Shown: in pieces, positions 3,915 to 50,106 of the stretch
Position numbering within the stretch: position 1 is the first letter of the stretch
How the letters are laid out: every line of letters begins with the position of its first letter
From: a virus
Lineage: Duplodnaviria > Heunggongvirae > Uroviricota > Caudoviricetes
Reading direction: 5' to 3' (one strand)
Virus record (IMG/VR): IMGVR_UViG_2609459822_000013
Coordinates: 12,652-76,651 of that record
Length of the DNA stretch: 64,000 nucleotides
Translations under genes and position numbers: made by a program
The notes under the pieces: generated by a model
What the model was told of the DNA's origin: nothing
What the model saw: the letters and a program-made list of their open reading frames with translations, nothing else
Database searches by the model: none

Positions 3915-4264
3915 AGTTTACAAAATGGCATCATTGTGTGATGCGGATCACATAATGGCGCTTTTTGTCTTGTTTGGGGGTATCCATTTTGTATACTTCA
4001 AGCAAACAAAATGCTCTTTAAAAATCCGGCAGCGCTGAAATGCGTAGAAATCACCTGAAAAGGAGAGAGCATTATGTCTTTTGATGATTACCAATGGCAT
4101 GACGACTATGAACGAGAAAGCGTCATGCGTGCAATGTGCAATGTATGCAGCACGAAGAAAGGAGGCTGTAACGAGTGCAACGAATGCTTAGAACATTGGC
4201 TAAGGGCCGGACACGCCGAAAGGCTGAACGAAACAGAGAATCAAAAATAATCGGGGTGGTTTTT

Positions 4265-12501: not shown

Positions 12502-12780
12502 CAGCGCGTTGACGTGTCGCCGTTTCTGTCAGCCAGCCATAACCGGGCCAATCCTTCCCGCGAGCGACGGCGGAATAGTCAAAAACACGTAATACCGGAT
12601 CAACAGTCCCATTAACAGGTCAGGCGCTACCTGGGTAGAAGAAAGCGCCATTCACCAATTTTATAAAATTCTGGAAACGGTACTGATGAAGCGCCGTTTT
12701 CAGTGTTTTATAACTGTTTTCACTCCCTGCGGTGTCGAGTTTTGCGGGGGTTATATTTTTCAGAATAGGAGATTATTCTG

Positions 12781-24622: not shown

Positions 24623-25282
24623 TTAATTCCAGTTGCAAGCGTTTTTCACTTTGTCGATGTGGTTATAAAGACCATCAATGTTAAACACTGCTTTCTCAAT
24701 GTCGCCAGCTTCCGGCACTGCTTCAATGATAAATTGTTTTTCGTTAACCAGTTTTTTAATCATTGGGATGGCTTTTTTGCCGTTCCATAATCCAAGAGCT
24801 TTATAGTTAGTTGACCGACTCCATTCAGTAGCTACAGCTTTGTGATCGCCGATCCGGTAGTTAATATAAGTAGTGTCCCCAGCGTCAGTTACATGGTTTG
24901 ACCATGCTACGAACATTTTTGTTTTATTACCCTGGCAAGCTATTGTTAATACAGGTTTGTTTTCATCCCGTGCTTTCAGTGTAGGGAAAGCATCAAGACT
25001 TCCGCTGAAATGTTCTGCTTTCACGAAAAGGAACACGTTTTTTGTGTCCTGCATATCATCTTTTCTTTCGACCACAAGCCACTGTTTACCAGCTTTTTCT
25101 TTTGCTAACTGTGCCTCATATGCGGCTTGTTTTGCTTGTTGTTCTGCAAGCCATTTAGCATTTTTCTCTGCTAATGCTTGTTGCTCTTGATTGGTCACTA
25201 TAGGCGCTTTTTCATTATCCTCATTGCAACCAACCAGACCCAATACCGCCGCAATCATTGCCACTTTTGCTAACCGTTTCAT
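24623..25282 (-). CDS. Antisense moron, predicted lipoprotein
   Basis: 219 aa; signal peptide with lipobox (VLGLVGC); inserted between tail chaperone and tape measure. Confidence 0.5.
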   Translation of the reverse strand: MKRLAKVAMIAAVLGLVGCNEDNEKAPIVTNQEQQALAEKNAKWLAEQQAKQAAYEAQLAKEKAGKQWLVVERKDDMQDTKNVFLFVKAEHFSGSLDAFPTLKARDENKPVLTIACQGNKTKMFVAWSNHVTDAGDTTYINYRIGDHKAVATEWSRSTNYKALGLWNGKKAIPMIKKLVNEKQFIIEAVPEAGDIEKAVFNIDGLYNHIDKVKNACNWN

Positions 25283-25409
25283 AACCCACCACGCTAACTT
25301 GATTTACTGACCATTCCCTTTAGCTTCCTTATACAAAATGGAGTCGTTGAAGTAAAGCCATTTTGTATAAAATAGATACACAGATCACATTTTTGCATGA
25401 GGTTAAATC

Positions 25410-27746
25410 ATGGATACCAGTGTAGGTACAATTTATTACGAAGTTGATGCGAAAACTAGTCAACTTCTCGTTGCACAACGACAGGCAGACCAGGCCTTTG
25501 GGCGTATAGAGCGCGGCGCAAAACAGGCTGACCGCCAGGTAAACACCCTGAAAACATCCATCAAGGCACTGACCAGGGTTATCCATTTGCTAATTGCTGC
25601 GGAGGCCGTGCGTCAATTCATGGATATGGCGGAGCAAGCAAAAATGCTTCGCGTAAAAATCAAAATGCTTACGGGCGATGCGGAGTCCGCCGGACGGGTT
25701 TTTGATGGCCTAAAAGCAATATCAAAAGAAACAGGCCAAAGCATGAAGGATACCGGGGATCTGTGGCAAGGCTTAGCTATCTCACTGAAGAACACGTCCG
25801 CCACTGAAGGGCAATTGCTTAACCTGGTAGGTACGATTCAGAAAATGGGGGCGTTGGGCGGCGCGTCAGCTGAGCAGATGTCAAACTCAATGCGTCAATT
25901 CCGTCAGTCTATCGACGGTGGCGTGTTGCGTGCTGAAGAATTCAACAGCCTGTTAGAAAACACCCCGACCATCGTACAGACAATGGCACGCCAGATGGGG
26001 TTATCAATGGGCCAATTCCGCGCCGAAATGCTGGACGGTAAGATCACGGCAGAAAGGATGGTTAACGCAATCCAGGCGGCTACGCAGGAAACAAACGAGA
26101 AGTTTGCGCAGTTGCCGCGCACATCCGGCATGGCCCTGAATGAGCTTAAAGTCGAGGTTATGGGACTTGTTGAGCAATTGGATGATCTTTTCGGTGTATC
26201 CGATACGGTTGTTGCTGGTATCGATCTTGTAACGAAAGGTGTTAAGGCTTTAGGTGAAGGCGCTGATTTCGCTAAAACCTGCTTTAACACCCTGAAGACG
26301 GCTGGTGGCGAATTCATCGACATGTTTGAAGATGTCAGAATCAAGGCTGGCGAGGTAGCCGAGAAGATCATCGCAATGGTGACGCCAATCAAGGCACTAA
26401 TGGATGCCTACAAATGGATGAAGGAGGTCGTAGGAGAGCAAACCGACGAATATAACAGCAACTACGAGAAGAAATACGGTAAGACCGTTGGCAAGGTCAT
26501 GCAACTACAGGATGATCTGACCGCAGCAATCCAGGCTACAGAAGAAGCAAGGAAAAATGAACAGAATGCCGCCAATGACGGAGCGATTACCGGATTCGAA
26601 AAGCCAGTAGACAAACCGAAAAAACAGAAAAAAGAGAAGAAATCTGAAGCTGATCGTCTTGGCGATAAAGGTATAAGCGTTTCTGACCAGTACAACAAAG
26701 ACGCCGCCGCTATGCGCAAAGCGTTAGAGAGCGGCAAGGCCATTGATGCTGCATTCGCCCAGGGTAAAATCACTCTCCTTGAGTACCGCGCCGCGCAAAA
26801 AGGGATAGGTAAGGAACTAAAGGAAGAATTAGCACAAATTCCGGTAGAGGAATTGCGCGACAAATGGGAGCAAATAGTAAGCCCGATGGATCAGCTAAAG
26901 GGCGAAGTAGACCCTATTCAGCAGGTTCAAAATGAATGGGCCGTCCGTAAGCAAATGCTTATCGACCTGGGCGTGACGGAAGCGCAACAGAAACAGGAAC
27001 TGTTAGCCTATGAGCAACAGATCCGCGATCTGAAGTGGGAGCAATGGCAGGCGCAAAGCGACACAAACAGCCTTATCGGTGATTGCGTTAATGGCCTTAA
27101 AGGTGGTATGAGCAATGCACTTGTTGGCCTGTTAAATGGTACTCAATCATTGAGTGATGTTTTTGCTAACTTAGGCAGCAATATCCTCGGGAATATCGGT
27201 AACAGGCTTTCAGACATAGCTGCAAACTGGATAGCAGATCAGATCATGATGGAAACGCAAAGCAAAGCGACTCAGGCAAGTACCACGGCGGGCGCGGTAG
27301 CGGCGCAAGGCCAGATTGCTGCGGCGGCGGCCCCGGCGGCGGCGGCAACAGCGGCGTCAACTGGCGGCGCATGGGCGGCGGCTGGTTCTGCGGCACTCAC
27401 TGCGATCATGTCGCTGGCTACGTCAATTTTTGGCGGCGGTCGCTTTAATGGTGGTAGCGTCATTGGTGGCAATATGTACCGTGTAGGGGAACACAACAGG
27501 CCGGAGCTATTCCAGACATCTAACGGAAATCAATATATGATCCCTGGCGAGAATGGCAGGGTTATTCCTGGTCGTGACATTGGCGGTGGCATTAGTATGC
27601 CTGTCAATATCAACATTCAGACCACAAACGGATTTAGCGACGAGGACAGCCGCAGACTTGAGCAGACAATGGAACGTGTAGCAATGAAAATGATAACAAG
27701 GGAATCACAACGACCAGGCGGAATATTGCAACCTCGCCGCAAATAA
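25410..27746 (+). CDS. Tail tape measure protein
   Basis: 778 aa; long helical, Ala/Gly-rich, typical tape-measure composition; position upstream of gpM/L/K/I/J. Confidence 0.7.
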   Translation: MDTSVGTIYYEVDAKTSQLLVAQRQADQAFGRIERGAKQADRQVNTLKTSIKALTRVIHLLIAAEAVRQFMDMAEQAKMLRVKIKMLTGDAESAGRVFDGLKAISKETGQSMKDTGDLWQGLAISLKNTSATEGQLLNLVGTIQKMGALGGASAEQMSNSMRQFRQSIDGGVLRAEEFNSLLENTPTIVQTMARQMGLSMGQFRAEMLDGKITAERMVNAIQAATQETNEKFAQLPRTSGMALNELKVEVMGLVEQLDDLFGVSDTVVAGIDLVTKGVKALGEGADFAKTCFNTLKTAGGEFIDMFEDVRIKAGEVAEKIIAMVTPIKALMDAYKWMKEVVGEQTDEYNSNYEKKYGKTVGKVMQLQDDLTAAIQATEEARKNEQNAANDGAITGFEKPVDKPKKQKKEKKSEADRLGDKGISVSDQYNKDAAAMRKALESGKAIDAAFAQGKITLLEYRAAQKGIGKELKEELAQIPVEELRDKWEQIVSPMDQLKGEVDPIQQVQNEWAVRKQMLIDLGVTEAQQKQELLAYEQQIRDLKWEQWQAQSDTNSLIGDCVNGLKGGMSNALVGLLNGTQSLSDVFANLGSNILGNIGNRLSDIAANWIADQIMMETQSKATQASTTAGAVAAQGQIAAAAAPAAAATAASTGGAWAAAGSAALTAIMSLATSIFGGGRFNGGSVIGGNMYRVGEHNRPELFQTSNGNQYMIPGENGRVIPGRDIGGGISMPVNINIQTTNGFSDEDSRRLEQTMERVAMKMITRESQRPGGILQPRRK

Positions 27747-27752
27747 ACAAAA

Positions 27753-27771
27753 CCCCGGCACAATGCCGGGG
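27753..27771. terminator. GC hairpin terminator (likely bidirectional)
   Basis: ccccggca-caat-gccgggg, nearly identical to the hairpin at 21213; A-run on one side, T-rich on the other. Confidence 0.4.
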
Positions 27772-27777
27772 CTATCT

Positions 27778-27957
27778 TTATTCAATTTCATCATTTTTAA
27801 ATTCGCCGTTTGCATAAAGCTGTAATGCGCTTATCAGTTCGTCAGCTTGCTTTTTGTCTATTACAATCATCTCGCAGTCGCTAACGTTCCATAATCTTCC
27901 ATCATCTTCAACACTAAGATCAATCCTTCTGCATTCTTCAGTCTCATGAATAATCAT
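27778..27957 (-). CDS. Antisense small ORF, 59-aa acidic protein
   Basis: Hand-translated, not in track; GAAGG RBS; DGR-containing sequence loosely similar to the 62-aa moron at 30114-30302. Confidence 0.3.
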   Translation of the reverse strand: MIIHETEECRRIDLSVEDDGRLWNVSDCEMIVIDKKQADELISALQLYANGEFKNDEIE

Positions 27958-28285
27958 TATAAACCTTCATTATGTTATTAATTTTAGTGAATAAATTTAC
28001 TCAAATCTTGTATACCCTCTTTCAATTTTCCCTCCGTGTACACTTCTGGCAAATACCGCGTCAGTATACCTAAAAAATGGGCATGTATATGTATCACCTT
28101 TACTATCCATCCATTTTAGCACCCATGCCATACGTTTTACATTGCTTTTATTTGCCGGGTTTTTCATTTTATTTTCCTCCGCAAATTACAATCTTTCGTT
28201 TCTTGCTATATAGCTGCGAGAAAACATTACCAACCAAATATTCCAGATCTCCCTCCAGGTGAATTTATCGTCCTCCATACCCACC

Positions 28286-28540
28286 TCACTTATGGCAACC
28301 GCGAACGCCAGACAATTCATTGAATTTATGGTGTTCAACAATCACCCACTCCTTCAGATCCTGGCTATAGACTCGCCAGTCTAAATTGGCGCGGAAGGCG
28401 TAGCCGTAACCGTCTTTCAATTTTTTGGGTGACGCATTCTTGTTTAAAAACGCGTTCAAAAGTTCCTTTGCTTTTTTGACTGCATGCCCCGGCGCGTTTT
28501 TCTGTGCTTTCAGATTTTTGTCAATCGCTACCAGTTTCAT
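28286..28540 (-). CDS. RelE/YafQ-superfamily toxin-like protein (putative)
   Basis: 84 aa; C-terminal FRANLDWRVY...VIVEHH resembles the RelE/YafQ/HigB core. Confidence 0.4.
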   Translation of the reverse strand: MKLVAIDKNLKAQKNAPGHAVKKAKELLNAFLNKNASPKKLKDGYGYAFRANLDWRVYSQDLKEWVIVEHHKFNELSGVRGCHK

Positions 28541-28557
28541 AACTCACCCCATCATCC

Positions 28558-28713
28558 TTAGTTAAGTGCCTTCAGGAAGAAGTCCCGGTATTCATCTTCT
28601 TTTGCATTCATCATGAATTGACCGTATTTGAATGCGTCGTCGAAACCCTTAACGATTGCTATTTCCACTTGTTCGAATGCGTTGTTTAGCATTACCACTA
28701 CATAGCGTTTCAT
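28558..28713 (-). CDS. Small 51-aa protein upstream of the toxin-like gene (candidate antitoxin)
   Basis: Internal ATG (MKRYVVV) with GAAGGAGG RBS; 17 nt upstream of the toxin-like ORF. Confidence 0.35.
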   Translation of the reverse strand: MKRYVVVMLNNAFEQVEIAIVKGFDDAFKYGQFMMNAKEDEYRDFFLKALN

Positions 28714-28880
28714 TTTGGGCCTCCTTCGTTGGTACTGCTTTTCTTCTTGCTTTCTGTATACATCTTGTTGCGAACTATGTGAAGCCATTTTGTAAACTAG
28801 CTATAATCATTGTACTGAAGATCTCATTTTCGCGTAGAAGCGCGTAAAGATATATACAAAATGTAACTTATGGGGGTTTT

Positions 28881-29234
28881 ATGCCGGAAGCTTTCAGATG
28901 GACGCCGCAAAGAAGCTACAGCGTGACCAGGGAGCCAAACGTATCTGTCATTAAACTTGGTGATGGGTATGAACAGCGCCAGGCGAAAGGGATCAACACA
29001 TTGCTTGATAGCTACACCCTGGTTTTTAAAGGCAGTAGCGCAGGATGCGGTGATGGTGGGAACGTGGCGATCCAGGCAGAAGCATTCTTGAGGGCGCGCG
29101 GCGCTAGCGAGGCTTTTTACTGGTCGCCGTCTATGGATGGCGTGCAAAGGCTTTTTGTTTGCCGTAGCTGGAGTATGACAAAGGACGGGCCTGTATACAC
29201 GCTAAACGCAACGTTTGAGCAAGTTATTAATTAG
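28881..29234 (+). CDS. Minor tail protein M (lambda gpM-like)
   Basis: 117 aa; FRWTP...GDGYEQR...FEQVIN pattern matches lambda gpM. Confidence 0.6.
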   Translation: MPEAFRWTPQRSYSVTREPNVSVIKLGDGYEQRQAKGINTLLDSYTLVFKGSSAGCGDGGNVAIQAEAFLRARGASEAFYWSPSMDGVQRLFVCRSWSMTKDGPVYTLNATFEQVIN

Positions 29235-29243
29235 GGAGGGGAT

Positions 29244-29426
29244 ATGCCTTATTTTTGTGTAGTGGAGCGCACTGGCGCTTTTACATTGTTCGCCGACTAT
29301 GAAATTAATGATCTTACTGTCCGGGCTGATAACGGTGAGACGTGGTATCTTCATGATATGGGTGATGGATATATCGGCTGTACGACTTGGGATGGCAAAG
29401 AAGTAGCATTTCTATCCTACGATTAA
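29244..29426 (+). CDS. Hypothetical small protein
   Basis: 60-aa ORF with GGGAGGGG RBS, followed by a terminator. Confidence 0.3.
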   Translation: MPYFCVVERTGAFTLFADYEINDLTVRADNGETWYLHDMGDGYIGCTTWDGKEVAFLSYD

Positions 29427-29428
29427 AA

Positions 29429-29455
29429 AAAACACCCCGCCACGGCGGGGTTTAT
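29429..29455. terminator. Bidirectional rho-independent terminator
   Basis: A6 + ccccgcc-acg-gcgggg + T3 between converging genes. Confidence 0.5.
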
Positions 29456-29527
29456 AGTGTCGATAGCAGAATGCATGACAATCCAATAATGATAATGATC
29501 ATTTCCAGAACGTAATGTTCGCACATC

Positions 29528-29776
29528 TCATAACGCCCCCTTCAAATATGTCAATCCCTTATCAGTGACGAATGAGTGATTAACCTGGTTTTCATCCGTC
29601 ATGATGATAAATAACTTTTCCTGTAGGTATTTCGCTTTAGGGTACAGCGTTAAGCAGACCTGGTACAGTATCCCGCGCTCAATCAGCAAATCAATAAATT
29701 CGTGTTCATGATAACCGATGAGGCGGGCGGCCTGTTTCAACGTGTACACATAATCACCGTGATTGCGCCGCCCCAT
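29528..29776 (-). CDS. Antisense moron, 82-aa protein with HTH-like segment
   Basis: Third gene of a minus-strand three-gene cluster; LKQAARLIGYHEHEFIDLLIERGIL looks helix-turn-helix-like. Confidence 0.35.
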   Translation of the reverse strand: MGRRNHGDYVYTLKQAARLIGYHEHEFIDLLIERGILYQVCLTLYPKAKYLQEKLFIIMTDENQVNHSFVTDKGLTYLKGAL

Positions 29777-29785
29777 GTTGCCGCC

Positions 29786-30133
29786 TTATTTATCGAATGC
29801 TGAAAGGTTATCGATACAGAAATCTTTCGCAGCTTTTTCGTATTCGCGTTTTGCTTCTGGATCGTCAGCCGGGAAACCTTTTGCGTGTATTTCACCAGGG
29901 CAAGACTGATCCATAGAGTCTGCAAAATTAACATTGAAGTTAACATTAATATCTTTCGGGTTCATATCTTCCACCTCATCAACTATCTGTACCGGATTAG
30001 CAGTATATTTCACTGGATGGCCTAAACTACATTCAAGAATCCTGCCTTCTTCCAGGGCTACTTCTTCGCTATCAAATAATCCGAAACACTCCTTGCTACC
30101 ACTTAACCACACATCAAGACTGTATTTTTTCAT
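29786..30133 (-). CDS. Antisense moron, 115-aa acidic protein
   Basis: Internal ATG (MKKYSLDVW) of track ORF; overlaps the upstream gene by 20 nt. Confidence 0.35.
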   Translation of the reverse strand: MKKYSLDVWLSGSKECFGLFDSEEVALEEGRILECSLGHPVKYTANPVQIVDEVEDMNPKDINVNFNVNFADSMDQSCPGEIHAKGFPADDPEAKREYEKAAKDFCIDNLSAFDK

Positions 30134-30302
30134 TTTTGTTAGCCTCATATTTGACAGGTTCGATCTGGTATCCCAAAAGGCGGTCATCCTCAGCAAGTAA
30201 AAGCGCGTCAACCAATGCTTCCCCCTCGTCGTCATACAGGGCGATAACCTTTTCCCTACCGTCTGTCATGAATACCGTCAACTTCCATAGCTTTTCAGTC
30301 AT
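30114..30302 (-). CDS. Antisense moron, 62-aa acidic protein
   Basis: Internal ATG (MTEKLWK) with GGAGGTG RBS; first gene of the cluster. Confidence 0.35.
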   Translation of the reverse strand: MTEKLWKLTVFMTDGREKVIALYDDEGEALVDALLLAEDDRLLGYQIEPVKYEANKNEKIQS

Positions 30303-30430
30303 AACGCACCTCCGCGCCATTTTGTTAACTTCCCCTTCGTTTGAGTAAAATATACATATTGTAAAACAACGATCAATCCATTTTGGTATGATTTAGCGTG
30401 ACGCAGATCACAAAATGACAAGGTGAGAAA

Positions 30431-31135
30431 ATGCGCAATATTCCGAGAGAGATGATTATTGATTCCGTCGATGCCGGAGTTGGCGCGGTCATTGACTTAT
30501 TTGAACTGGACCTTACTCCCCTGGGAGGCGAGGTTATCCGCTTCCATTCCGGCGCGAACGGCTATTACGGCCAGGTTATCTGGAAGGGAGTAGCTTACAA
30601 CAGCTACCCGATCGAGGCGACGGGCTTCGAAATGAAAAATGAGGGTGTTTATTCACGGCCTCAAATGGTTGTAGCCAATATCGGCGGACTCATTACGGGG
30701 ATGAACAACGATTTTAACGACCTTAGAGGAATGAAGGTTACGCGCCGCCAGGTGGAGGTGAAATATCTTGACGCCGTTAACTTCCCTAACGGTAATCCAG
30801 ACGCAGATCCATCTATTGAGGCTGTATCTTTTTACGTCGTTGAAGCAATGAGCGAAGAAACAGCGGATCAGGTGCAGTATGAACTGTCAACGCCAATTGA
30901 TGCAGATAAAGCTGTCATCCCTGGGCGCACCATCCTTGCTGACGTTTGCCAGTGGCAATACAGAGGCGACGGGTGTATGTACGCTGGCGGACCAGTAGCA
31001 AACGATAAAGACGAGCCGACAAGCGATCCTAAAGCCGACAGATGTAGCCACCGTCTGAGCGGTTGTCGTTTACGTTTCCCGCGTCCAAATCCGTTACCAA
31101 TTTCCTGTTTCCCCGGTTCAAGTAAGGTGGGCTAA
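30431..31135 (+). CDS. Minor tail protein L (lambda gpL-like)
   Basis: 234 aa; cysteine cluster near the C-terminus; position between M and K. Confidence 0.6.
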   Translation: MRNIPREMIIDSVDAGVGAVIDLFELDLTPLGGEVIRFHSGANGYYGQVIWKGVAYNSYPIEATGFEMKNEGVYSRPQMVVANIGGLITGMNNDFNDLRGMKVTRRQVEVKYLDAVNFPNGNPDADPSIEAVSFYVVEAMSEETADQVQYELSTPIDADKAVIPGRTILADVCQWQYRGDGCMYAGGPVANDKDEPTSDPKADRCSHRLSGCRLRFPRPNPLPISCFPGSSKVG

Positions 31136-37808: not shown

Positions 37809-39596
37809 ATGATTTACACAACAGGCACGATAGCCGTTAGCGGAAAAACAGTTACTGGAGCTGGCACTGAATTCAATGCCGCATTATCTATGATTAGAGT
37901 GGGTTGCACCCTTATTGCCATTAGCAATCCGGTGCAGATTTTCTCAATCACAGAGGTAAAAAGCGCGACAAGTTTGTCAGTAACTCCGGCGGCAAGCCCG
38001 GCAATTCCGGCTGGAACTAAATATAGCATCCTGCTTTCAGATTCGATCTCTGTGGATGGCCTTGCTCAGGATGTTGCCGAAACACTGCGTTACTATCAGG
38101 GCAAAGAATCAGAAATAGCTGACGCCGTTGAATTTTTTAGCGACAACAAAGATGTTATTTCAGCCTCGAAATTAGCATCAGAATCAGCTACCACTGCAAC
38201 CAACGCGGCAACAACAGCGACAACCGCCGCCGATTCAGCTAAGACATACAGAGACGAGGCCCACGAATACGCCAATCAGACGGCACAGCCTTACGCGTAT
38301 GTTTTGCAGCCGCTGCCGGACGTATGGATACCGTTTAACGATTCTCTGGATATAATCACTGGCTACGGCTCAGGCACGAAAAAAGTAACCATTGATGGTG
38401 AAGAAAAAACAATATCATCAGATAAGGTTGTTTCTTTCTCCCGCGCAAGTACAGCTACTTACATTAATAAATCAGGAGTTTTAACCGTAGCTGATATTAA
38501 CGAGCCACGTTTCGAACGCGAAGGATTATTAATCGAAGGTGCTCGCACAAACTTCCTTATCAACGGTAGCGTCCCTGCAAATTGGGGCCGATCAACTAAT
38601 GTCACCGCTACAGCAGAAACTGACAGCTACGGTTTCCTGTACGGAAAATTCGTGATCGACGACAGTGCAGTTGGCGGCACTGGTGGTTGCAACATGGCGT
38701 CAGTGATCACTGCTAACGTTATCGACACTACTCAGCACGATGAACAGTACGTCACCGCTTCTTGTCGTTTTCGTTCGTCAAACGACGTCCGGTTGCGTAT
38801 CCGTTTTGCTGGTGGTGAAGACACTTCCAGTCTGGCATTCCTGTGTGATGCGTATATCAAACTAAGCGACATGTCTGTAACGAAGACAGGCGGCGATGCA
38901 GACAAACTCACTGTTAGCGTAACAACGGACAGCATCACCGGATGGAATCGCGCAGTGGTGACGTATAAATCAACCGTAACGCTGGTTACCGCGCAAATTC
39001 AGTTTGCTCCGGTTAGCGCGTTCGTGTCCGGCGACTACATGGAACTGGCAACTCCTCAAGTCGAACTTGGTACGAATGCATCATCGTATATTAGCTCAGG
39101 TTCAACTCCTTCTACCCGTGCGAGCGATATGGTAAGTATTACGACTAAAAACAACCTTGCGCGTCCTCCGTTCAGTTTCCTGCTCGAACTTCACAAGGAC
39201 TGGTTCAGAGCGCCTAACTCCGCGCCGCGTGTTTGGGATATTGCCAACGCTAAGAATGGGCAGTCAGTTATCGCTGCGGTTAACCGTGGTAGCAATCAGT
39301 ATTACATGTCTCTATCCAAAAGCGACGGTGCTTACATCAATTCTGCCGCTGGTGTTAAGTTAACTGATAACGCCACTATTGGCGCGGTGGTTAAAGGAGA
39401 TGGAACATTCCATGTGATCATGAACGGTGCACCTGCTAGTGATGCGACTTGTATCTACGGTGGTGTGACACAGGACAAAAACATCCGCTTTGGTGGTCAG
39501 ACATCCGATGGAACGCGCCACTTGTTCGGACATATCAGAAATTTTCGTATTTGGCACAAAGCATTAACTGATTCTCAATTAAGCGAAATTGTTTAA
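37809..39596 (+). CDS. Tail fiber protein
   Basis: 595 aa; Ala/Thr-rich N-terminal stalk, large C-terminal globular domain; downstream of J. Confidence 0.6.
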   Translation: MIYTTGTIAVSGKTVTGAGTEFNAALSMIRVGCTLIAISNPVQIFSITEVKSATSLSVTPAASPAIPAGTKYSILLSDSISVDGLAQDVAETLRYYQGKESEIADAVEFFSDNKDVISASKLASESATTATNAATTATTAADSAKTYRDEAHEYANQTAQPYAYVLQPLPDVWIPFNDSLDIITGYGSGTKKVTIDGEEKTISSDKVVSFSRASTATYINKSGVLTVADINEPRFEREGLLIEGARTNFLINGSVPANWGRSTNVTATAETDSYGFLYGKFVIDDSAVGGTGGCNMASVITANVIDTTQHDEQYVTASCRFRSSNDVRLRIRFAGGEDTSSLAFLCDAYIKLSDMSVTKTGGDADKLTVSVTTDSITGWNRAVVTYKSTVTLVTAQIQFAPVSAFVSGDYMELATPQVELGTNASSYISSGSTPSTRASDMVSITTKNNLARPPFSFLLELHKDWFRAPNSAPRVWDIANAKNGQSVIAAVNRGSNQYYMSLSKSDGAYINSAAGVKLTDNATIGAVVKGDGTFHVIMNGAPASDATCIYGGVTQDKNIRFGGQTSDGTRHLFGHIRNFRIWHKALTDSQLSEIV

Positions 39597-39606
39597 GGTG
39601 GTTAAC

Positions 39607-39873
39607 ATGAAAGACGTTAGCTTGCAATTTACTGATAAACAGCAATACAACGACATCGTGATTAACAGCGGCTGGCTGGACACCAATCAGCAAACCGTGT
39701 TTATTAATGACATTGGTTTTGTTCTTGTATTCGATGATCCAGAAAGCGACACGCCTGTACTGATTGAGAAAAAAGGCTATTACGTCAACATGCGCATTAC
39801 TGGTGACGATGTTGATTTGTCGCCGCTGGAAAAATTCATCATTCCAGATCCCGGCGTCCGCGCGTGGGCTTGA
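39607..39873 (+). CDS. Tail fiber-associated small protein (possible assembly chaperone)
   Basis: Internal ATG (MKDVSLQ) with AAGGTGG RBS, directly after the tail fiber gene. Confidence 0.35.
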   Translation: MKDVSLQFTDKQQYNDIVINSGWLDTNQQTVFINDIGFVLVFDDPESDTPVLIEKKGYYVNMRITGDDVDLSPLEKFIIPDPGVRAWA

Positions 39874-39917
39874 TGGTGCAATAGTAACAGCATGGTGATG
39901 TTAAAGACATCGCCGCG

Positions 39918-39945
39918 AAACGAGGCTAACGCCTCGTTTCTTTTT
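39918..39945 (+). terminator. Rho-independent terminator at the end of the tail operon
   Basis: aaacgaggc-taac-gcctcgttt hairpin followed by a T-run. Confidence 0.55.
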
Positions 39946-40320
39946 GTGTACCAAATAGTGACCAAATATCAAAAACCAAAATCAAAAACAACATAACATT
40001 CTGTTTCATAAATGATTATTCGTTGCGCTAATCATTCCAGACAGGACTGGTGAGTAAGTCCAGGGTATTGAAGTTGTGCGTAATCATTGAGATCCCGTTA
40101 TTTTTATCAATTTTTGTTGCTATCCGATCGCAAAAAAGCCACGTCATATGATCAGATAATTCTGATAATGATAGACGCTATTTAACACTTCACACGGTTT
40201 GTATATGGAAAAGCATTTTGCTTTTTGTATTCAATTTAGACAGAATTTTATTAATCATTTCAGGGTAATGGGGTGATGAGATGTTGCGTAACAGGGCCAG
40301 AAGGCTAGACTACAAAATAA

Positions 40321-41325
<1,005 letters not shown>

Positions 41326-41599
41326 CAAAAGCAATTTTCCCGGATGTCTGTATACAAAAACGCCGCAAAGTTTGAGCGAAGTCAATAAACTCTCTACCCA
41401 TTCAGGGCAATATCTCTCTTGCAGGTGAATGCAACGTCAAGCGATGGGCGTTGCGCTCCATATTGTCTTACTTCCTTTTTTGAATTACTGCATAGCACAA
41501 TTGATTCGTACGACGCCGACTTTGATGAGTCGGCTTTTTTTTGCCTGTTATTTATCAGCGTCTACCCTTTAAGAGTCCACCCAATGACCGGAGGGAAAT

Positions 41600-41773
41600 A
41601 TGACGACACTTATTTATTTGCAAATTCCTGTCCCTGAACCGATTCCTGGCGATCCTGTTCCAGTGCCCGATCCGATCCCTCGTCCGCAACCCATGCCTGA
41701 CCCACCACCCGATGAAGAACCGATTAAATTGTCGCATCGTGAGCGTAGATCTGCGAGGATACGCGCCTGCTAA
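41600..41773 (+). CDS. Small proline-rich protein (57 aa)
   Basis: Hand-translated, not in track; GGAGGG RBS 5-6 nt upstream; (P-x) repeats. Confidence 0.35.
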   Translation: MTTLIYLQIPVPEPIPGDPVPVPDPIPRPQPMPDPPPDEEPIKLSHRERRSARIRAC

Positions 41774-41802
41774 CTTTGCGTCGATGACCACGAGAATAGA
41801 TT

Positions 41803-43176
41803 GTGACCGCTTTTTCTACCCTGAATGTTTTGCCTCCCGCCCAACTCACGAACCTTAATGAGTTGGGTTATTTAACTATGACGCCGGTGCAGGCCGCCGC
41901 GCTTCCGGCGATCCTTGCCGGAAAAGATGTTCGCGTGCAGGCGAAAACCGGCAGCGGCAAAACGGCGGCTTTTGGCCTCGGCTTGTTACAGCAAATTGAT
42001 GCGTCGCTATTTCAAACCCAGGCTTTAGTGCTGTGTCCTACGCGTGAACTGGCGGATCAGGTGGCAGGTGAATTGCGTCGGTTGGCGCGTTTTCTGCCAA
42101 ATACCAAAATTTTGACGTTGTGCGGTGGTCAACCGTTCGGTATGCAGCGTGATTCGTTGCAACATGCGCCGCATATTATCGTGGCAACGCCGGGCCGTTT
42201 GTTGGATCATCTGCAAAAAGGCACGGTATCACTGGATGCGTTGAATACGCTGGTGATGGATGAGGCCGACCGCATGCTGGATATGGGATTTAGCGACGCC
42301 ATTGATGATGTCATCCGTTTTGCGCCAGCATCTCGACAGACGCTTCTGTTTTCGGCAACCTGGCCGGAAGCCATCGCCGCAATCAGCGGACGAGTGCAAC
42401 GCGATCCTTTAGCGATTGAAATTGACTCAACAGATGCTCTGCCACCTATTGAACAACAATTTTATGAGACATCCAGCAAAGGCAAAATTCCGTTGTTGCA
42501 ACGGTTATTAAGTTTGCATCAGCCATCCTCTTGCGTGGTGTTTTGCAATACCAAAAAAGATTGCCAGGCTGTCTGCGACGCGCTGAATGAAGTAGGGCAA
42601 AGTGCATTGTCGTTACACGGCGATCTGGAGCAACGTGATCGCGATCAGACCCTGGTACGTTTTGCTAACGGTAGCGCCCGTGTACTGGTTGCGACTGATG
42701 TTGCTGCGCGAGGTCTGGATATTAAATCGCTTGAGCTGGTGGTGAACTTTGAGCTGGCGTGGGATCCTGAAGTTCATGTGCATCGCATCGGTCGTACAGC
42801 GCGTGCAGGAAATAGCGGTCTGGCGATCAGTTTCTGTGCCCCGGAAGAAGCACAGCGGGCCAATATCATTTCTGACATGTTGCAGATAAAACTTAACTGG
42901 CAAACGCCGCCAGTTAATAGTTCTATTGTGCCGCTGGAAACCGAAATGGCAACGTTATGTATCGATGGCGGGAAAAAAGCCAAAATGCGCCCGGGTGATG
43001 TATTAGGTGCGCTGACAGGAGATATCGGGCTTGATGGCGCAGATATTGGCAAAATCGCCGTGCATCCGGCGCATGTCTATGTCGCGGTGCGTCAGGCTGT
43101 TGCTCATAAAGCATGGAAACAGTTACAGGGCGGGAGGATTAAAGGAAAAACGTGCCGGGTGCGGTTATTAAAATAA
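41803..43176 (+). CDS. dbpA: ATP-dependent RNA helicase DbpA (DEAD-box)
   Basis: 457 aa; AKTGSGKT Walker A, DEAD box, SAT, HRIGRTAR motifs. Confidence 0.9.
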   Translation: MTAFSTLNVLPPAQLTNLNELGYLTMTPVQAAALPAILAGKDVRVQAKTGSGKTAAFGLGLLQQIDASLFQTQALVLCPTRELADQVAGELRRLARFLPNTKILTLCGGQPFGMQRDSLQHAPHIIVATPGRLLDHLQKGTVSLDALNTLVMDEADRMLDMGFSDAIDDVIRFAPASRQTLLFSATWPEAIAAISGRVQRDPLAIEIDSTDALPPIEQQFYETSSKGKIPLLQRLLSLHQPSSCVVFCNTKKDCQAVCDALNEVGQSALSLHGDLEQRDRDQTLVRFANGSARVLVATDVAARGLDIKSLELVVNFELAWDPEVHVHRIGRTARAGNSGLAISFCAPEEAQRANIISDMLQIKLNWQTPPVNSSIVPLETEMATLCIDGGKKAKMRPGDVLGALTGDIGLDGADIGKIAVHPAHVYVAVRQAVAHKAWKQLQGGRIKGKTCRVRLLK

Positions 43177-43304
43177 TGAAATGTTGAATTGCCGGGTGCA
43201 AGAGTAAACATCTTCTTCGGCATTGCCGGATGTGTCGCTGACCGCGTCTTATCCGGCCTCCATAAGAGTAGCCCGATACGCTTACGCATCGGGCGCTATC
43301 CGGG

Positions 43305-44240
43305 TTATTTCACTTCAACCACATTCAGCCGTAACTCATCCAACTGATTTTCATCTTCTTCAGGCTGCCAACCTGCCGGTTGTAGAGGGATCTCTTCGCG
43401 ATCAAACGCCAGATCACCCCCGTTAACCACTTCAGAACCGTGGGTAATGCCTTTGAAATCGAACAGGTTGGTATCGCACAGATGCGACGGCACCACATTC
43501 TGCATCGCGCTGAACATCGTCTCGATACGCCCCGGATAACGTTTATCCCAGTCACGCAACATGTCAGCAATCACCTGACGTTGCAGGTTAGGCTGTGAAC
43601 CGCACAGGTTGCACGGAATAATCGGGAACGCTTTTGCATCGGCAAAGCGCTGAATATCTTTCTCGCGGCAGTAGGCCAGCGGGCGAATCACGATATGTTT
43701 GCCATCATCGCTCATCAGTTTCGGAGGCATACCTTTCATCTTGCCGCCGTAGAACATATTTAAGAACAACGTTTGCAGGATATCGTCACGATGGTGACCC
43801 AGCGCGATCTTCGTCGCTCCCAGTTCCGTTGCGGTACGATAAAGGATACCGCGACGAAGACGAGAACACAGTGAGCAAGTGGTTTTGCCCTCCGGAATCT
43901 TCTCTTTCACGATACCGTAAGTGTTCTCTTCAACAATCTTGTACTCAACGCCCAGCTTTTCAAGATACTCGGGCAGAACGTGTTCCGGGAAGCCCGGTTG
44001 CTTTTGATCGAGGTTAACAGCCACCAGCGAAAAATTGATTGGCGCGCTTTGCTGCAAATTGCGCAGAATTTCCAGCATGGTATAGCTGTCTTTACCCCCG
44101 GAGAGGCAAACCATGATGCGATCGCCTTCTTCAATCATATTGAAGTCAGCAATGGCTTCGCCCACGTTACGACGCAGACGTTTTTGTAATTTGTTCAGGT
44201 TGTATTGTTCTTTCTTTGTAATTTGTTGATTTTCTTTCAT
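43305..44240 (-). CDS. ttcA: tRNA 2-thiocytidine biosynthesis protein TtcA
   Basis: 311 aa; PP-loop SGGKDS and CxxC pairs; adjacent to the Rac integrase as in E. coli K-12. Confidence 0.9.
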
Positions 44241-44291
44241 TATTTCAGTTCTCTGGTACTAAATGGGGCAAATTGGGGGCAAACTTTGCAA

Positions 44292-45527
44292 CTACGATAA
44301 CCGCGCATTCAACATGGCTACCTGTTCGTCGTTCATGTCATCAATCCACATACCGTAAATTTCATACACCATCTGCGCAGTTTCATGCCCCATCTGGCTG
44401 GCTATAAACGCCGGGTTCGCTCCTGCCGTCAACAGCCAGCAGGCAAAAGTATGCCGCGTATGGTACGGATTACGGCGGCGAATACCAGCACGTTTTACTG
44501 CTGCATTCCATCTCGCACCCAAACTGCTTACCGAGTAATAAGGTTTCTGTTTTCCGTTACACACTCTGGGCATGAAAACAAAATGCAGTTTTTGCTTTTC
44601 GGTTCTGCCGTACTCCCGATGATAAAAAGTGATTTCGCTTTTGCGATGATGCCCGGTCAGTTTGTATTGCTCCTTCAGTGCTTCAAGAGCAGGCTGCAGT
44701 AGTGTTACTGTCCGGATCCCGGCATTTGTTTTTGGGGGACCGAACATATCAAGTATCGTCAGGTTTCTTCTGACATTCACTATTCCCTTTTCGAGATCCA
44801 CATCCTCCCACGCCAGAGCTGCCAGTTCCCCGTGACGAAGTCCTGAGTAAACGGCAAATTTCCACAAGTTCTGGCTCTGTCCTTTTTCACTTTCCATTAA
44901 TGCATTGAATTCTGTTTTAGATAACGGATCAGGCTTTATTCTGTTTCGCTGTAATTTTTTTACTCCTTCAAATGGTTTGGTTGATATAAATCCCGACTGA
45001 TACGCAAAACGCAACAGCGAACAGAGCAGGGCGATATAGTTATCAACTGTGCGCACGGTTCTTCCTTTTTTGTTGGATCTTGGATTATCCAGGTAAAGCG
45101 TTTCTCCATGCAGCAGTTCATTCCGGTAGATTAAGATATCGCTATAACGAATATGTGATATCGGGGTACTTTCACAAATTATTATTCTGAGTGTTTTTAA
45201 TTGTGATTTCGTTTTCTTCATTGTGTTTGTTGTTAACTCTGTCTCTTTAATTTTTGTCCAGATATCACAAAGTTCTCCGAACGTTTTTATGACTCTCGTT
45301 GTCACCATTTTTGCCCCAGTGCTGGACTGGGGAAAACGTCTTAAATACTCAAATTCACCGGAGTTTATTTCATGAACTATCAGCGATCTTAAATTTCCGG
45401 CCTTTTTAATATTACTGTTTGTAATCTCCCAGCCTTTTAATGTTTCCCGACATCGTTTTCCTCGAAACATGAACCAGATGCGAATGTATCTACCTCTAAT
45501 CTCGACACCTGTTGGTAATTTAGACAT
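44292..45527 (-). CDS. intR: Tyrosine integrase (Rac-type)
   Basis: 411 aa; C-terminal R...HxxR...Y catalytic pattern (HTRHTFA, YEIYGMW); adjacent to ttcA. Confidence 0.9.
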   Translation of the reverse strand: MSKLPTGVEIRGRYIRIWFMFRGKRCRETLKGWEITNSNIKKAGNLRSLIVHEINSGEFEYLRRFPQSSTGAKMVTTRVIKTFGELCDIWTKIKETELTTNTMKKTKSQLKTLRIIICESTPISHIRYSDILIYRNELLHGETLYLDNPRSNKKGRTVRTVDNYIALLCSLLRFAYQSGFISTKPFEGVKKLQRNRIKPDPLSKTEFNALMESEKGQSQNLWKFAVYSGLRHGELAALAWEDVDLEKGIVNVRRNLTILDMFGPPKTNAGIRTVTLLQPALEALKEQYKLTGHHRKSEITFYHREYGRTEKQKLHFVFMPRVCNGKQKPYYSVSSLGARWNAAVKRAGIRRRNPYHTRHTFACWLLTAGANPAFIASQMGHETAQMVYEIYGMWIDDMNDEQVAMLNARLS

Positions 45528-45528
45528 A

Positions 45529-45744
45529 TCATGAGTCTTTGATAAACTGATTTATCTTTGGATAGTTGTACCAGATAATCCCTCGCTTACTGTCTGGCTT
45601 CCCTAAAGGAGATACTCGTTTGAAGTGGAAGCCTTCCACCCAACAGTTCTGGCGGTATGCTTCAATTTGTCTGGCCCCCAGACCAGTGCGAAGCATCAGG
45701 CCGTATTCAACCATCCACTCTTCATTAAAGATTACTTGTGCCAT
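45529..45744 (-). CDS. xisR: Excisionase
   Basis: Internal ATG ([10 protein letters not shown]) gives 71 aa; directly upstream of int. Confidence 0.7.
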
Positions 45745-45843
45745 CGCATCACCTCTGGCAGGCGCCAATGTTAGACTGAAATTGACGCCCGATGTTGATT
45801 ATTAATAATCAGCTATGAAGTTTTAATTTGAATACAATGCAAT

Positions 45844-46044
45844 TCACGAGGACTGAAGTCTCTCGCAATTAAAATTTATCAGTTTTACTTTCTGCTCTCT
45901 GGAAACGGCTGCTTCTTTTTTACCTGAGAGCATTTTTTCGCATTCTGATTTCGTTAGTTTAGATTTTGAATATCTTGTCCAGTTAGTAGGAGTGCCACCT
46001 TCCTTTTCAATAGTGGCGGTAATTTTATACATGAACACCTCCAT
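45844..46044 (-). CDS. ydaC: Rac prophage protein YdaC-like
   Basis: Small ORF between xis and ralR; start uncertain. Confidence 0.45.
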   Translation of the reverse strand: MEVFMYKITATIEKEGGTPTNWTRYSKSKLTKSECEKMLSGKKEAAVSREQKVKLINFNCERLQSS

Positions 46045-46219
46045 TATTATTTCCAGTGGTTCGTTTATTCCATCTTTCGAGTGCTTCTTTTTCACTTCCA
46101 CCATAACCGGTTCGGGATTCGCATCCGTTACACTTCGCTCGGTAATATCCTGAAATGGCTTTCACCGTTACTGATGGACAACCACAAAATGGACATGGTT
46201 TAACATTGTCATATCTCAT
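46025..46219 (-). CDS. ralR: Restriction alleviation protein Lar/RalR
   Basis: Internal ATG (MRYDNVKPCPFCGC); Cys4 zinc ribbon; position upstream of recT. Confidence 0.7.
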   Translation of the reverse strand: MRYDNVKPCPFCGCPSVTVKAISGYYRAKCNGCESRTGYGGSEKEALERWNKRTTGNNNGGVHV

Positions 46220-46275
46220 AATTTTTCTCATAAAAAATATTTCAAGTTGGCGGTGCATTACACCGCCAGACTGAA

Positions 46276-47085
46276 TTATTCCTCTGAATTATCGATTACA
46301 CTGTATTCCCCGGTTAATACAGAGGAATCTGCAGGATCGATTGTCAGTGGTTCCTTTTCATCCATTGATACTGCACGCTGGATCTCAATTGATACGGGCA
46401 GATATTTGAACAGGCGACGAATAGCTGTTTTCTTTGCCATTTCTTCCCAGTGAGTTACCCACGGCCCGTTATTACCAGCTTTACTCTGGCTGCGCACCAG
46501 CTCAATCTGTCTGCGCGTCATAACTTCAAACTGAGTACCTCCGTCTTTCAGTCTTGCGACAGCATAGACGTGGGTAACCGGGGCATCTTCGTTTTCTCCT
46601 GGGCGGTGTATTAACTTTTCATCAAGGCCAAATTCGAAATTAAATTCGTCACCTTCACGGACAACACGGGCTGACAGGCTGGCGATTTGACCTGAACGGC
46701 GAGCCAGATCAATCATGCCGCGATAGCCAATGATTAGCTGAACGTTTTTTTTACCGCTCTTTTCGTTTTTATTACCAAAAGGCAGTAAATATGCATGACC
46801 GAGGGCGCTACCTGGCTCAAGTCCGAGCTGTGAACACTGTACGATTGCACTGACAAAACTCATAGTGTCACAGTTTCCTAACGCCGGAACTTTACGAATT
46901 TCTGTGGTGGCGATACGGATCATACGTTCAGCCGTCATATGGCGTGGAAGAGCTGCTGCCAGTTGCTCTTTCATTGATGGCTGGTTAATAAAACTAATCA
47001 CGTCGTTATTTTTAATTGCTGCTGGTGCACGGTTTTCCTGAGTTTTTTGCAGATCGGCTTTTGCGATTGGTGGTTGCTTAGTCAT
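46276..47085 (-). CDS. recT: Recombinase RecT (single-strand annealing protein)
   Basis: Internal ATG (MTKQPPIAK) gives 269 aa; matches RecT as I recall it. Confidence 0.85.
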
Positions 47086-49729: not shown

Positions 49730-49830
49730 TGTTTTTTAACCTCAACTCAGATTAAAATTCGTTTTGTTCAGTGAATGATCTTGCCGGATACACACTGTTC
49801 ATAGCCTGCGCCATACGCAGGCTATTTCTT

Positions 49831-50106
49831 TCAGATTTCACCTTTTAATTTCATTGCAATTAGAGTTGCCAGAAATTCGGCTTTTTTTTCTGCGGGCAGA
49901 TTCTTTCCGGTATGCACCAGGCACATTTTTTTGACACCTTCGTGAAGTGTTTTAACGTTGCCTGATGGACCGTCGATATCAACCACAGTGAATGGGGTTT
50001 CTTTATTTTCTGTTTTAATCACGTAGCCAATACGCTTTCCTTCCAGATTAACCTCGTGAACAATGTCATCAGTAGTTACAACAGTGGCTTCATAACTGGT
50101 AATCAT
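49831..50106 (-). CDS. racC: RacC
   Basis: Internal ATG (MITSYEATVV) gives 91 aa. Confidence 0.7.
   Translation of the reverse strand: MITSYEATVVTTDDIVHEVNLEGKRIGYVIKTENKETPFTVVDIDGPSGNVKTLHEGVKKMCLVHTGKNLPAEKKAEFLATLIAMKLKGEI

Follow-up and report, generated by a model that had tools for sequence, protein, structure and literature searches.

An antisense accessory operon with a stand-alone KilAC gene between tail genes M and L of mEpimmI-type prophages

We examined a window of 64,000 nucleotides (positions 12,652 to 76,651 of IMG/VR virus record IMGVR_UViG_2609459822_000013), a stretch of Escherichia coli chromosome that holds approximately the right two-thirds of an mEp021-like "mEpimmI" prophage, followed by host DNA. 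Between the tail genes M and L lie three small minus-strand genes, here named orfA, orfB, and orfC. Comparison with related phages indicates that they make up an autonomous accessory operon that mEpimmI-type prophages carry as a fixed feature of the M/L junction and that runs from its own predicted sigma-70 promoter to an intrinsic terminator. The initial annotation, made from the sequence alone, had placed three minus-strand open reading frames (ORFs) between a gpM-like and a gpL-like gene, and their coordinates, their overlap of 20 nucleotides (nt), and the acidity of orfA and orfB (isoelectric point, pI, 4.4 for both) are borne out. Its inventory of the gap was correct for the antisense genes and overlooked a plus-strand ORF of 60 amino acids (29244-29426), which has a ratio of nonsynonymous to synonymous polymorphism (pN/pS) of 0.22. 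In window coordinates, the locus is laid out as follows.

28881-29234, plus strand: gpM-like tail gene
29244-29426, plus strand: acidic ORF of 60 amino acids (pI 4.1; phrog_3249), in the same M/L gap, outside the antisense operon
29434-29451, minus strand: predicted intrinsic terminator of the operon, with a 7-bp G+C-rich stem, a 4-nt loop, and eight U
29528-29776, minus strand: orfC, 82 amino acids, pI 7.9, a single KilAC/ANT domain
29786-30133, minus strand: orfB, 115 amino acids, pI 4.4, homologue of mEp021 gp73
30114-30302, minus strand: orfA, 62 amino acids, pI 4.4, first gene of the operon, homologue of mEp021 gp74 (51 amino acids)
30303-30430: intergenic region of 128 bp between orfA and the gpL-like gene, with the predicted promoter
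30431-31135, plus strand: gpL-like tail gene

The comparison set consisted of 43 related IMG/VR loci plus mEp021 and MagusPhagus (45 in all), with pN/pS computed over 34 to 37 unique relatives. The resulting ratios are 0.33 for orfA, 0.34 for orfB, and 0.13 for orfC, next to 0.07 for gpL and 0.12 for gpM; within orfB, the N-terminal part has 0.44 and the C-terminal tail 0.13. Because of these values, we regard all three as real genes under purifying selection, and spurious ORFs are ruled out. Amino acid identity to the window is 90 to 100% for orfC and 84 to 100% for M and L, and ranges down to 44% for orfA (44 to 100%) and 57% for orfB (57 to 100%). The closest phages over the region (MagusPhagus, mEp021, mEp013, mEp515, and mEp554) are 85 to 89% identical at the nucleotide level. 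The orfA/orfB overlap, exactly 20 nt, is peculiar to the 62-amino-acid variant of orfA; the 51-amino-acid homologue in mEp021 has none. The operon genes have a G+C content of 0.40 to 0.45, versus 0.52 for gpM and 0.51 for gpL.

How old is the insertion? The cluster is neither private nor sporadic: of the 43 IMG/VR relatives, 42 carry orfA, orfB, and orfC together, as do mEp021 and MagusPhagus. In fact, orfB and orfC occur in all 45 loci and orfA in all but L009, where an unrelated ORF of 52 amino acids takes its place; matches to the island also occur in 35 complete E. coli genomes. Only extra genes inside the operon are sporadic, as small acidic genes come and go. An acidic gene of 77 amino acids, of the mEp021 gp72 type, lies between orfB and orfC in five loci; an acidic gene of 67 amino acids follows orfC on its 3' side in nine, so that orfC is not the last gene there; and one locus has a split HNH/AP2 homing endonuclease between orfB and orfC (L012 2538-3023). 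The extra genes of relatives (67, 77, and 58 amino acids) matched no family of known function. As a side observation, mEp021 also has an HNH gene between its tail genes I and J (45958-46524).

In lambda, M is followed directly by L. The two genes are likewise directly adjacent, and overlap, in Erwinia phage Midgardsormr38, whose gpM is 62% identical. At the same junction, the ES18-like Salmonella phage Oslo carries two small genes of unrelated sequence, one on each strand. Because of the M-L adjacency in Midgardsormr38 and the different cargo in Oslo, we consider the M/L junction a hot spot for accessory genes and the cluster an insertion on a deeper time scale, now fixed within the mEpimmI group, as far as sequence comparison can tell. 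The proposal of an independent antisense unit that interrupts the tail operon is thereby sustained, with a predicted promoter and terminator of its own, lower G+C content, and M and L adjacent in Midgardsormr38. The operon thus has much of what characterizes a moron, namely, extra DNA at a point where relatives have two genes side by side, a promoter and a terminator of its own, both predicted, and deviating G+C content, and lacks sporadic presence among close relatives.

The AT-rich, promoter-like region noted upstream of the operon stands as a prediction, with the following elements, all on the minus strand.

30397-30412: palindrome TGTGATCTGCGTCACG, like the CRP consensus (TGTGA-N6-TCAC), centred ~62 bp upstream of the inferred start
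30389-30377: A-rich element ATACCAAAATGGA, just upstream of the -35 element
30376-30371 and 30354-30349: -35 element TTGATC and -10 element TATATT of the predicted sigma-70 promoter, with a 16-nt spacer and an inferred start near 30342
30363-30346: conserved near-palindrome TACAATATGTATATTTTA of 18 bp, overlapping the -10 element
30316-30330: 15-mer AGTTAACAAAATGGC in the 5' leader (~+13 to +27), repeated exactly at 28784-28798 (minus strand) and 3915-3929 (plus strand)

In an alignment of 33 unique relatives, the intergenic region as a whole shows high conservation, the -35 and -10 elements are invariant, and the spacer is 16 to 17 nt. The near-palindrome across the -10 element reads TACAATATGTATATT(G/T)TA in relatives. 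We set aside a LexA box, as the palindrome, inspected by eye, is without CTG...CAG, and also a sigma-54 promoter and an IHF site, both of which fit poorly by eye. The half-sites of the CRP-like palindrome are invariant in the 33 relatives and the sequence between them is variable; the pattern has 4 matches in the window versus 0.43 expected. Its distance from the start is that of class I CRP sites, as in lacP1. TGTGA-N6-TCAC is a candidate class I CRP site, which matches the lac CRP site in its core and, roughly, in its position. A phage-wide enrichment of CRP-like palindromes was considered and dropped, since one of three sites is a terminator hairpin (mEp021 TERM_4), and the island site is the sole remaining candidate.

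The sequence places the operon as one of three antisense units in the tail module, and its promoter resembles those of the others. Four promoters have one architecture: that of the M-L operon, that of an antisense island between the tape-measure gene and M, that of an antisense unit before the tape-measure gene, and a putative early promoter of mEp021 that sits just downstream of the repressor gene. They share (T/A)TAC(A/C)AAAATGG(A/C) abutting the -35 element, a spacer of 16 to 17 nt, and a -10 element that starts with TATA; in the three antisense units, the spacer ends in ATG. A fifth promoter-like copy points leftward in the early region (541-602). The associated motif family is almost wholly intergenic in mEp021, where coding sequence makes up 87% of the genome (intergenic matches: 5 of 5 exact and 20 of 25 with one mismatch), and has 18 matches in the window versus 5.4 expected. 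The repeated element ACAAAATGG is present in the orfA-gpL intergenic region, and the 15-mer AGTTAACAAAATGGC has four matches versus 0.34 expected. Because of the four-promoter alignment and the intergenic motif family, the predicted operon promoter is a paralogue of the phage's own promoters rather than an import.

A reading of the repeated motif as nut/boxB was rejected: according to the mEp021 paper, its nut sites have an adenine-rich boxB loop, and better boxA-like candidates lie elsewhere. An Rfam search over 27600-30600 gave nothing near a gathering score. Two further places show elements of the family. On the minus strand at 541-602, between the homologues of mEp021 gp25 and gp26, TTACAAAACGGA-TATGCA-16 nt-TATATT is followed by the palindrome GTGATCGCAATCAC; this conserved intergenic region holds the fifth promoter-like element, antisense to the early right operon. 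At 3915-3997, in the nutR2 area, the terminator hairpin CATTGTGTGAT-GCGG-ATCACATAATG corresponds to mEp021 TERM_4. Inverted copies of the 15-mer, AGT(T/A)TACAAAATGG(C/A), bracket this hairpin (3915-3929, plus strand, and 3983-3997, minus strand) and, to judge from the sequence, could pair on RNA. A boxA-like TGCTCTTTAAAAA lies downstream of the TERM_4 hairpin in mEp021.

At the other end of the operon, a bidirectional terminator had been proposed. The minus-strand direction is well founded, with a hairpin at 29434-29451 followed by eight T, and the site is shared back-to-back with the plus-strand unit of M and the 60-amino-acid ORF. In the plus-strand direction, the T-run is weak in this prophage; the mEp021 annotation lists the hairpin as a terminator for either strand.

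What do the proteins do? The initial annotation recognized no family, and this needs correction: orfC belongs to Pfam family PF03374 (KilAC/ANT), and all three proteins have PHROG families of unknown function. orfC scores 28.7 bits against PF03374 (gathering cut-off 25.3; E 1.8e-6), with residues 10-79 aligned to profile positions 23-102 of 108, and carries the TxKG motif (as TDKG) noted for CreP and KilA; RefSeq likewise gives the E. coli homologues the KilAC name. It had also been called helix-turn-helix (HTH)-like. The structural backing for this is weak: its AlphaFold model (pLDDT, predicted local distance difference test, 82) finds its best Foldseek matches in the winged-helix DNA-binding domains of MerR, RacA, Xis, and BldC, at E 0.37 or worse. 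A sequence search of the PDB with orfC gave no match. Beyond the phage group, the nearest relatives found by tblastn are only the C-terminal domains of antirepressors from Vibrio, Cronobacter, and Hafnia (33 to 41% identity). Host-directed activity of KilAC proteins, such as filamentation, growth arrest, and SOS inhibition, is known only for CreP, the AriS KilAC domain, P1 KilA, and Phi11 gp07. CreP, a KilAC-only protein, is a bacteriostatic toxin that makes E. coli cells filament and that co-purifies with FtsZ (10.1101/2024.01.05.574328), and the isolated KilAC domain of Listeria AriS suffices to suppress the SOS response (PMC9043618).

orfB is a protein of two parts. Residues 1-52 form a hypervariable beta-beta-alpha-beta domain, and residues 73-115 form a nearly invariant tail; in the AlphaFold model, pLDDT is ~90 over residues 1-50 and below 50 over residues 60-88, with the conserved tail modelled at low confidence. 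Fold searches with orfB gave generic matches only. Variants of the N-domain reassort freely against the surrounding genes (Spearman correlations of about 0 to 0.3). An exhaustive HMMER search of 1.84 billion representative proteins found the orfB family outside the phage group only as P0087, a free-standing tail module of 56 amino acids encoded among consecutive small genes on an unrelated phage contig of 58 kb (L046 5001-5171); no relatives of P0087 turned up when viral contigs were scanned. The start of P0087 corresponds to Met57 of orfB, which is nearly invariant and is preceded by a Shine-Dalgarno-like AGGTGGA 5 nt upstream of its ATG (29962-29988, minus strand). Because P0087 begins at the equivalent of Met57 and AGGTGGA precedes Met57, translation may also start internally, or orfB may stem from an old fusion of two genes. 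A local dearth of synonymous change around Met57 may just be due to the low divergence of this segment. The orfB profile also matched P0091 and P0095, long, apparently eukaryotic proteins with repeated OmpA-like segments that carry CEGHAKGxPADDNEAKR, which resembles the orfB tail motif EIHAKGFPADDPEAKR; homology of the tail motif (HAKGxPADDxEAKR) to these proteins was set aside, as the score is probably inflated by the repeats.

orfA belongs to phrog_29559 (E 9e-47), a family of unknown function, and its core of ~50 residues has a sequence pattern suggestive of beta-beta-alpha-beta. A profile-profile comparison (hhalign) aligned orfA with the orfB N-domain over 45 collinear columns at P 0.0013; when the 677 ORFs of the window were searched with the orfB N-domain profile, no ORF other than orfB itself scored better than orfA. 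This is suggestive, weak evidence that the two are paralogues. No membrane segments were evident in orfA or orfB when their sequences were inspected by eye, with no prediction tool. Neither protein matched anything above the curated cut-offs in Pfam and NCBIfam, and their PHROG matches are private families of unknown function only. GenBank and RefSeq label the operon genes as hypothetical, "putative antirepressor," or, for some orfA homologues, "transporter." The last name, given in NCBI records to several homologues (P0061-P0063, P0066, and P0071), finds no support in acidic, apparently soluble sequences of 51 to 62 amino acids.

It is tempting to combine these observations into a function. 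By analogy, we tentatively favor orfC as a host-directed effector and orfA and orfB as binding proteins with specificity modules shaped by conflict, an explanation we would still put somewhat short of probable. Converging late transcription should silence the operon, so its products would be present in the lysogen and/or early after infection or induction, and not late. orfC, the conserved effector, would bind a host protein and alter host physiology, in analogy to stand-alone KilAC proteins, by a division block or SOS damping. orfA and orfB would be small, acidic, cytoplasmic binding proteins. The invariant orfB tail would bind a partner that is itself conserved, be it orfC or a host protein, and the fast-evolving orfB N-domain and orfA would serve as specificity modules that have been shaped in conflict with other phages or host defences; these could restrain or target orfC, or be inhibitors in their own right.

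Several observations weigh against this explanation. With tblastn, orfC has no close homology to CreP or AriS, so that a KilAC function is transferred by domain membership alone. A KilAC domain was not found among the neighbours of P0087. The 77-amino-acid gene and the homing endonuclease found between orfB and orfC break any translational coupling there, and orfA is outright replaceable, as L009 demonstrates. The CRP assignment draws on consensus and position only, and the likeness to the putative early promoter could mean that the timing is early-lytic rather than lysogenic, whereas transcription from the repressed prophage is central to the moron concept. Finally, the paper on the phage group has no discussion of the locus; it lists a KilAC-like antirepressor among the near-core genes (PMC11893012).

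Other explanations must be weighed against the same data. The operon could be an anti-defence unit of the acr-aca type, in which orfA, orfB, and the extra acidic proteins inhibit defences after DNA entry from a strong promoter, and orfC is an autorepressor acting through the -10 palindrome. Fast-evolving, exchangeable, small acidic orphans upstream of a conserved gene with an HTH-like fold recall such operons, as does the conserved 18-bp near-palindrome over the -10 element. The promoter belongs to the family of a putative early promoter, small early genes of other phages include relatives of the orfB tail and of the 60-amino-acid ORF, and the best, albeit weak, structural matches of orfC are domains of MerR, RacA, Xis, and BldC bound to DNA. 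However, orfC is a KilAC protein rather than a known HTH type of Aca, matches no XRE-type family, and is not the last gene in nine relatives. The palindrome lies in AT-rich promoter DNA and is part of a multi-promoter motif, so it need not be an orfC operator. No anti-defence annotation was matched in Pfam or PHROGs, and the exhaustive search found no outside relatives of orfB that would point this way. We therefore think this explanation unlikely.

The plus-strand ORF of 60 amino acids raises another alternative, a prophage defence of the Tab/anti-Tab or Tai/Ati type, in which one or more minus-strand proteins block an invader (for example, at tail assembly) and the ORF is the antidote. The architecture matches: minus-strand genes with their own predicted promoter are set in a late operon, with a small plus-strand gene on the late transcript. 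In phi80, taiEcA is divergent and interrupts a Q-dependent operon that carries atiEcA (PMC11364771). Here, the ORF begins 10 nt past gpM, behind a strong Shine-Dalgarno sequence and co-oriented with the late operon; the minus-strand proteins are small and cytoplasmic like Tab, and a position in the tail module invites a tail-directed target. An antidote should vary with its defence protein, yet the variants of the ORF show no co-variation with orfA (Spearman correlation of pairwise distances, 0.14) or the orfB N-domain (-0.01), and co-vary only with neighbouring genes (0.41 for adjacent orfC). The ORF matches phrog_3249 with E 2e-16, and its homologues (40 to 50% identical) are small early genes of virulent Rtp/T1-like coliphages, such as rtp57, far from tail genes and away from any such partner; we take it, on these matches, to be mobile accessory cargo rather than a tail component. 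PHROG and HMMER searches found no similarity beyond private families, with no direct comparison to Tab and Tai sequences. PADLOC, whose 2023 models predate Tab and Tai, finds nothing. A defence-antidote pair is, in our judgment, quite unlikely.

Could the operon be a toxin-antitoxin or abortive infection module? orfC would then be a bacteriostatic toxin held by the upstream acidic proteins, and the orfB N-domain would sense an invading phage. The gene order, acidic first and near-neutral KilAC last, recalls type II modules; CreP, which is KilAC only, is bacteriostatic in an abortive-infection-like circuit; and a conserved tail joined to a variable domain fits a design of neutralizer plus sensor. 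In addition, the neighbouring antisense island has a ParE-like toxin domain behind a small acidic protein. On the other side, toxicity of orfC is presumed, several relatives have genes between orfB and orfC, and the orfB tail and orfC give no co-variation signal, though both barely vary. Among all the small proteins, nothing relevant was detected with PADLOC or NCBIfam. This explanation also overlaps the preferred one, as a special case of orfC as an effector, and in its specific form we give it little credence.

Least probable, and in our view hardly to be expected, is a secondary immunity or antirepressor module comparable to P22 immI, which sits among late genes, in which orfC would inactivate the phage's own or a competitor's repressor under the control of orfA and orfB: KilAC is the C-terminal part of many annotated antirepressors (Ant, Rha, and Bro-N fusions), mEp021 gp71, of which orfC is a homologue, is annotated "putative antirepressor," and Salmonella phage Oslo has a P22-type Ant within its tail module, but that label is by name only, orfC is without the AntA/B, Bro-N, Rha, or KilA-N N-terminal domains of annotated antirepressors, and no Arc/Mnt-like repressor genes are present.

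The surroundings of the operon hold further features. The second antisense island (27751-28880, minus strand) lies between the tape-measure gene (25410-27746) and gpM and has a promoter from the family to which that of the M-L operon belongs. It contains the following features.

28558-28713, minus strand: ORF of 51 amino acids, acidic
28286-28540, minus strand: ORF of 84 amino acids, basic, with a ParE-like toxin domain (PF24732) above threshold
27997-28167 and 27778-27957, minus strand: small ORFs
27751-27773: terminator hairpin

By their sequences, the first two look like an antitoxin-toxin pair. The third antisense unit (24623-25420, minus strand), before the tape-measure gene, encodes a lipoprotein of 219 amino acids (lipobox LVGC) with a VasI domain (PF11319; type VI secretion; E 2e-16). 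Its cargo differs from mEp021 gp63, and the mEp phages share only the promoter-proximal 150 bp; inverted ATACAAAATGG copies (25356-25368 and 25331-25343) flank its -35 element and reach the -10 element. Farther on, the prophage ends on its right side somewhere between 39596 and 40342; after it come a CorA-family transporter gene, which from its position we take to be zntB, then dbpA and a Rac-type recET region (39596-50000). Because a Rac-type recET region follows the prophage end, two prophage regions are close together on this chromosome.

Taken to its furthest, the evidence could be assembled into a three-part conflict module: orfC as a KilAC inhibitor of growth or division held by the orfB tail, the variable orfA and orfB domains as sensors or decoys for competitor proteins, and the whole wired, with its two sister antisense units, into a phage-specific promoter family that is possibly responsive to cAMP-CRP. 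As a complete picture this is speculative, and we would be surprised to see all of it hold.

These considerations bear on a common group of phages, as mEpimmI-type prophages are reported to be as common as lambdoid phages in human-gut E. coli (PMC11893012). Lysogens of mEpimmI phages have been published as not inducible by ultraviolet light. Should orfC behave as stand-alone KilAC domains do elsewhere, the prophage would encode a modulator of host division or of the SOS response, which could bear on this missing induction. As fast-evolving orphans, orfA and orfB are good candidates for new inhibitors in phage-host or phage-phage conflict, and three antisense cargo slots under one promoter family offer a convenient place to seek accessory functions. 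In all, the M-L operon is clearly delimited, conserved, and open to testing, and belongs to a prophage group that is common in the gut, with nothing beyond what is expected of accessory islands.

How does the operon compare with known systems? The closest precedent for orfC is CreP of Acinetobacter baylyi ADP1 (10.1101/2024.01.05.574328), which likewise consists of a KilAC domain only (103 amino acids, versus 82 in orfC), has the TxKG motif, and belongs to a conflict-related, phage-derived locus. However, the two have no close sequence similarity, and the toxicity and filamentation that are demonstrated for CreP are presumed by analogy for orfC. Their settings differ as well: a CRISPR effector directed by CreA, a CRISPR RNA (crRNA)-like RNA, represses CreP, whereas the orfC gene lies behind two genes for acidic proteins within the tail module of a prophage. 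With the KilAC domain of AriS from Listeria phage phi10403S (PMC9043618), orfC shares PF03374, but its domain stands alone and lies in a coliphage tail module. The acr/aca operons of Mu-like Pseudomonas phages are similar in that variable small acidic proteins precede a conserved, possibly HTH protein, in a unit amid structural genes with a promoter palindrome; they differ in that orfC is a KilAC protein of no known Aca family, no Acr homology was found, and the operon here is antisense.

Closer in architecture are Tab/anti-Tab of JBD26 (PMC10884400) and TaiEcA/AtiEcA of phi80 (PMC11364771), where small antisense genes with their own promoter are combined with a small plus-strand gene on the late transcript (a "non-contiguous operon"). 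Tab lies between the terminase genes of Pseudomonas phage JBD26 and Tai upstream of the packaging module of phi80, whereas the operon described here lies between M and L and has three genes, one of them KilAC; co-variation of the kind expected for a defence-antidote pair was not found in the M/L gap. With classical morons (HK97 gp15 and lambda bor and lom; PMC3594210), the operon shares extra DNA in the tail region, a promoter and terminator of its own (predicted here), and deviating composition. Unlike these, it is not sporadic in its group, its proteins appear to be cytoplasmic and acidic rather than membrane proteins or lipoproteins, and its predicted promoter is paralogous to the phage's own. 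Altogether, the operon is of a known kind, the accessory units with their own promoter and terminator in late operons (HK97 gp15, JBD26 tab, and phi80 tai), with CreP as the precedent for a KilAC-only protein. What is new is the combination of genes, the two orphan families, and the make-up of orfB, in which a variable domain is joined to a tail that is conserved, as well as, judging from the promoter sequences, three antisense cargo slots of one tail module that share a promoter family with the phage early region.

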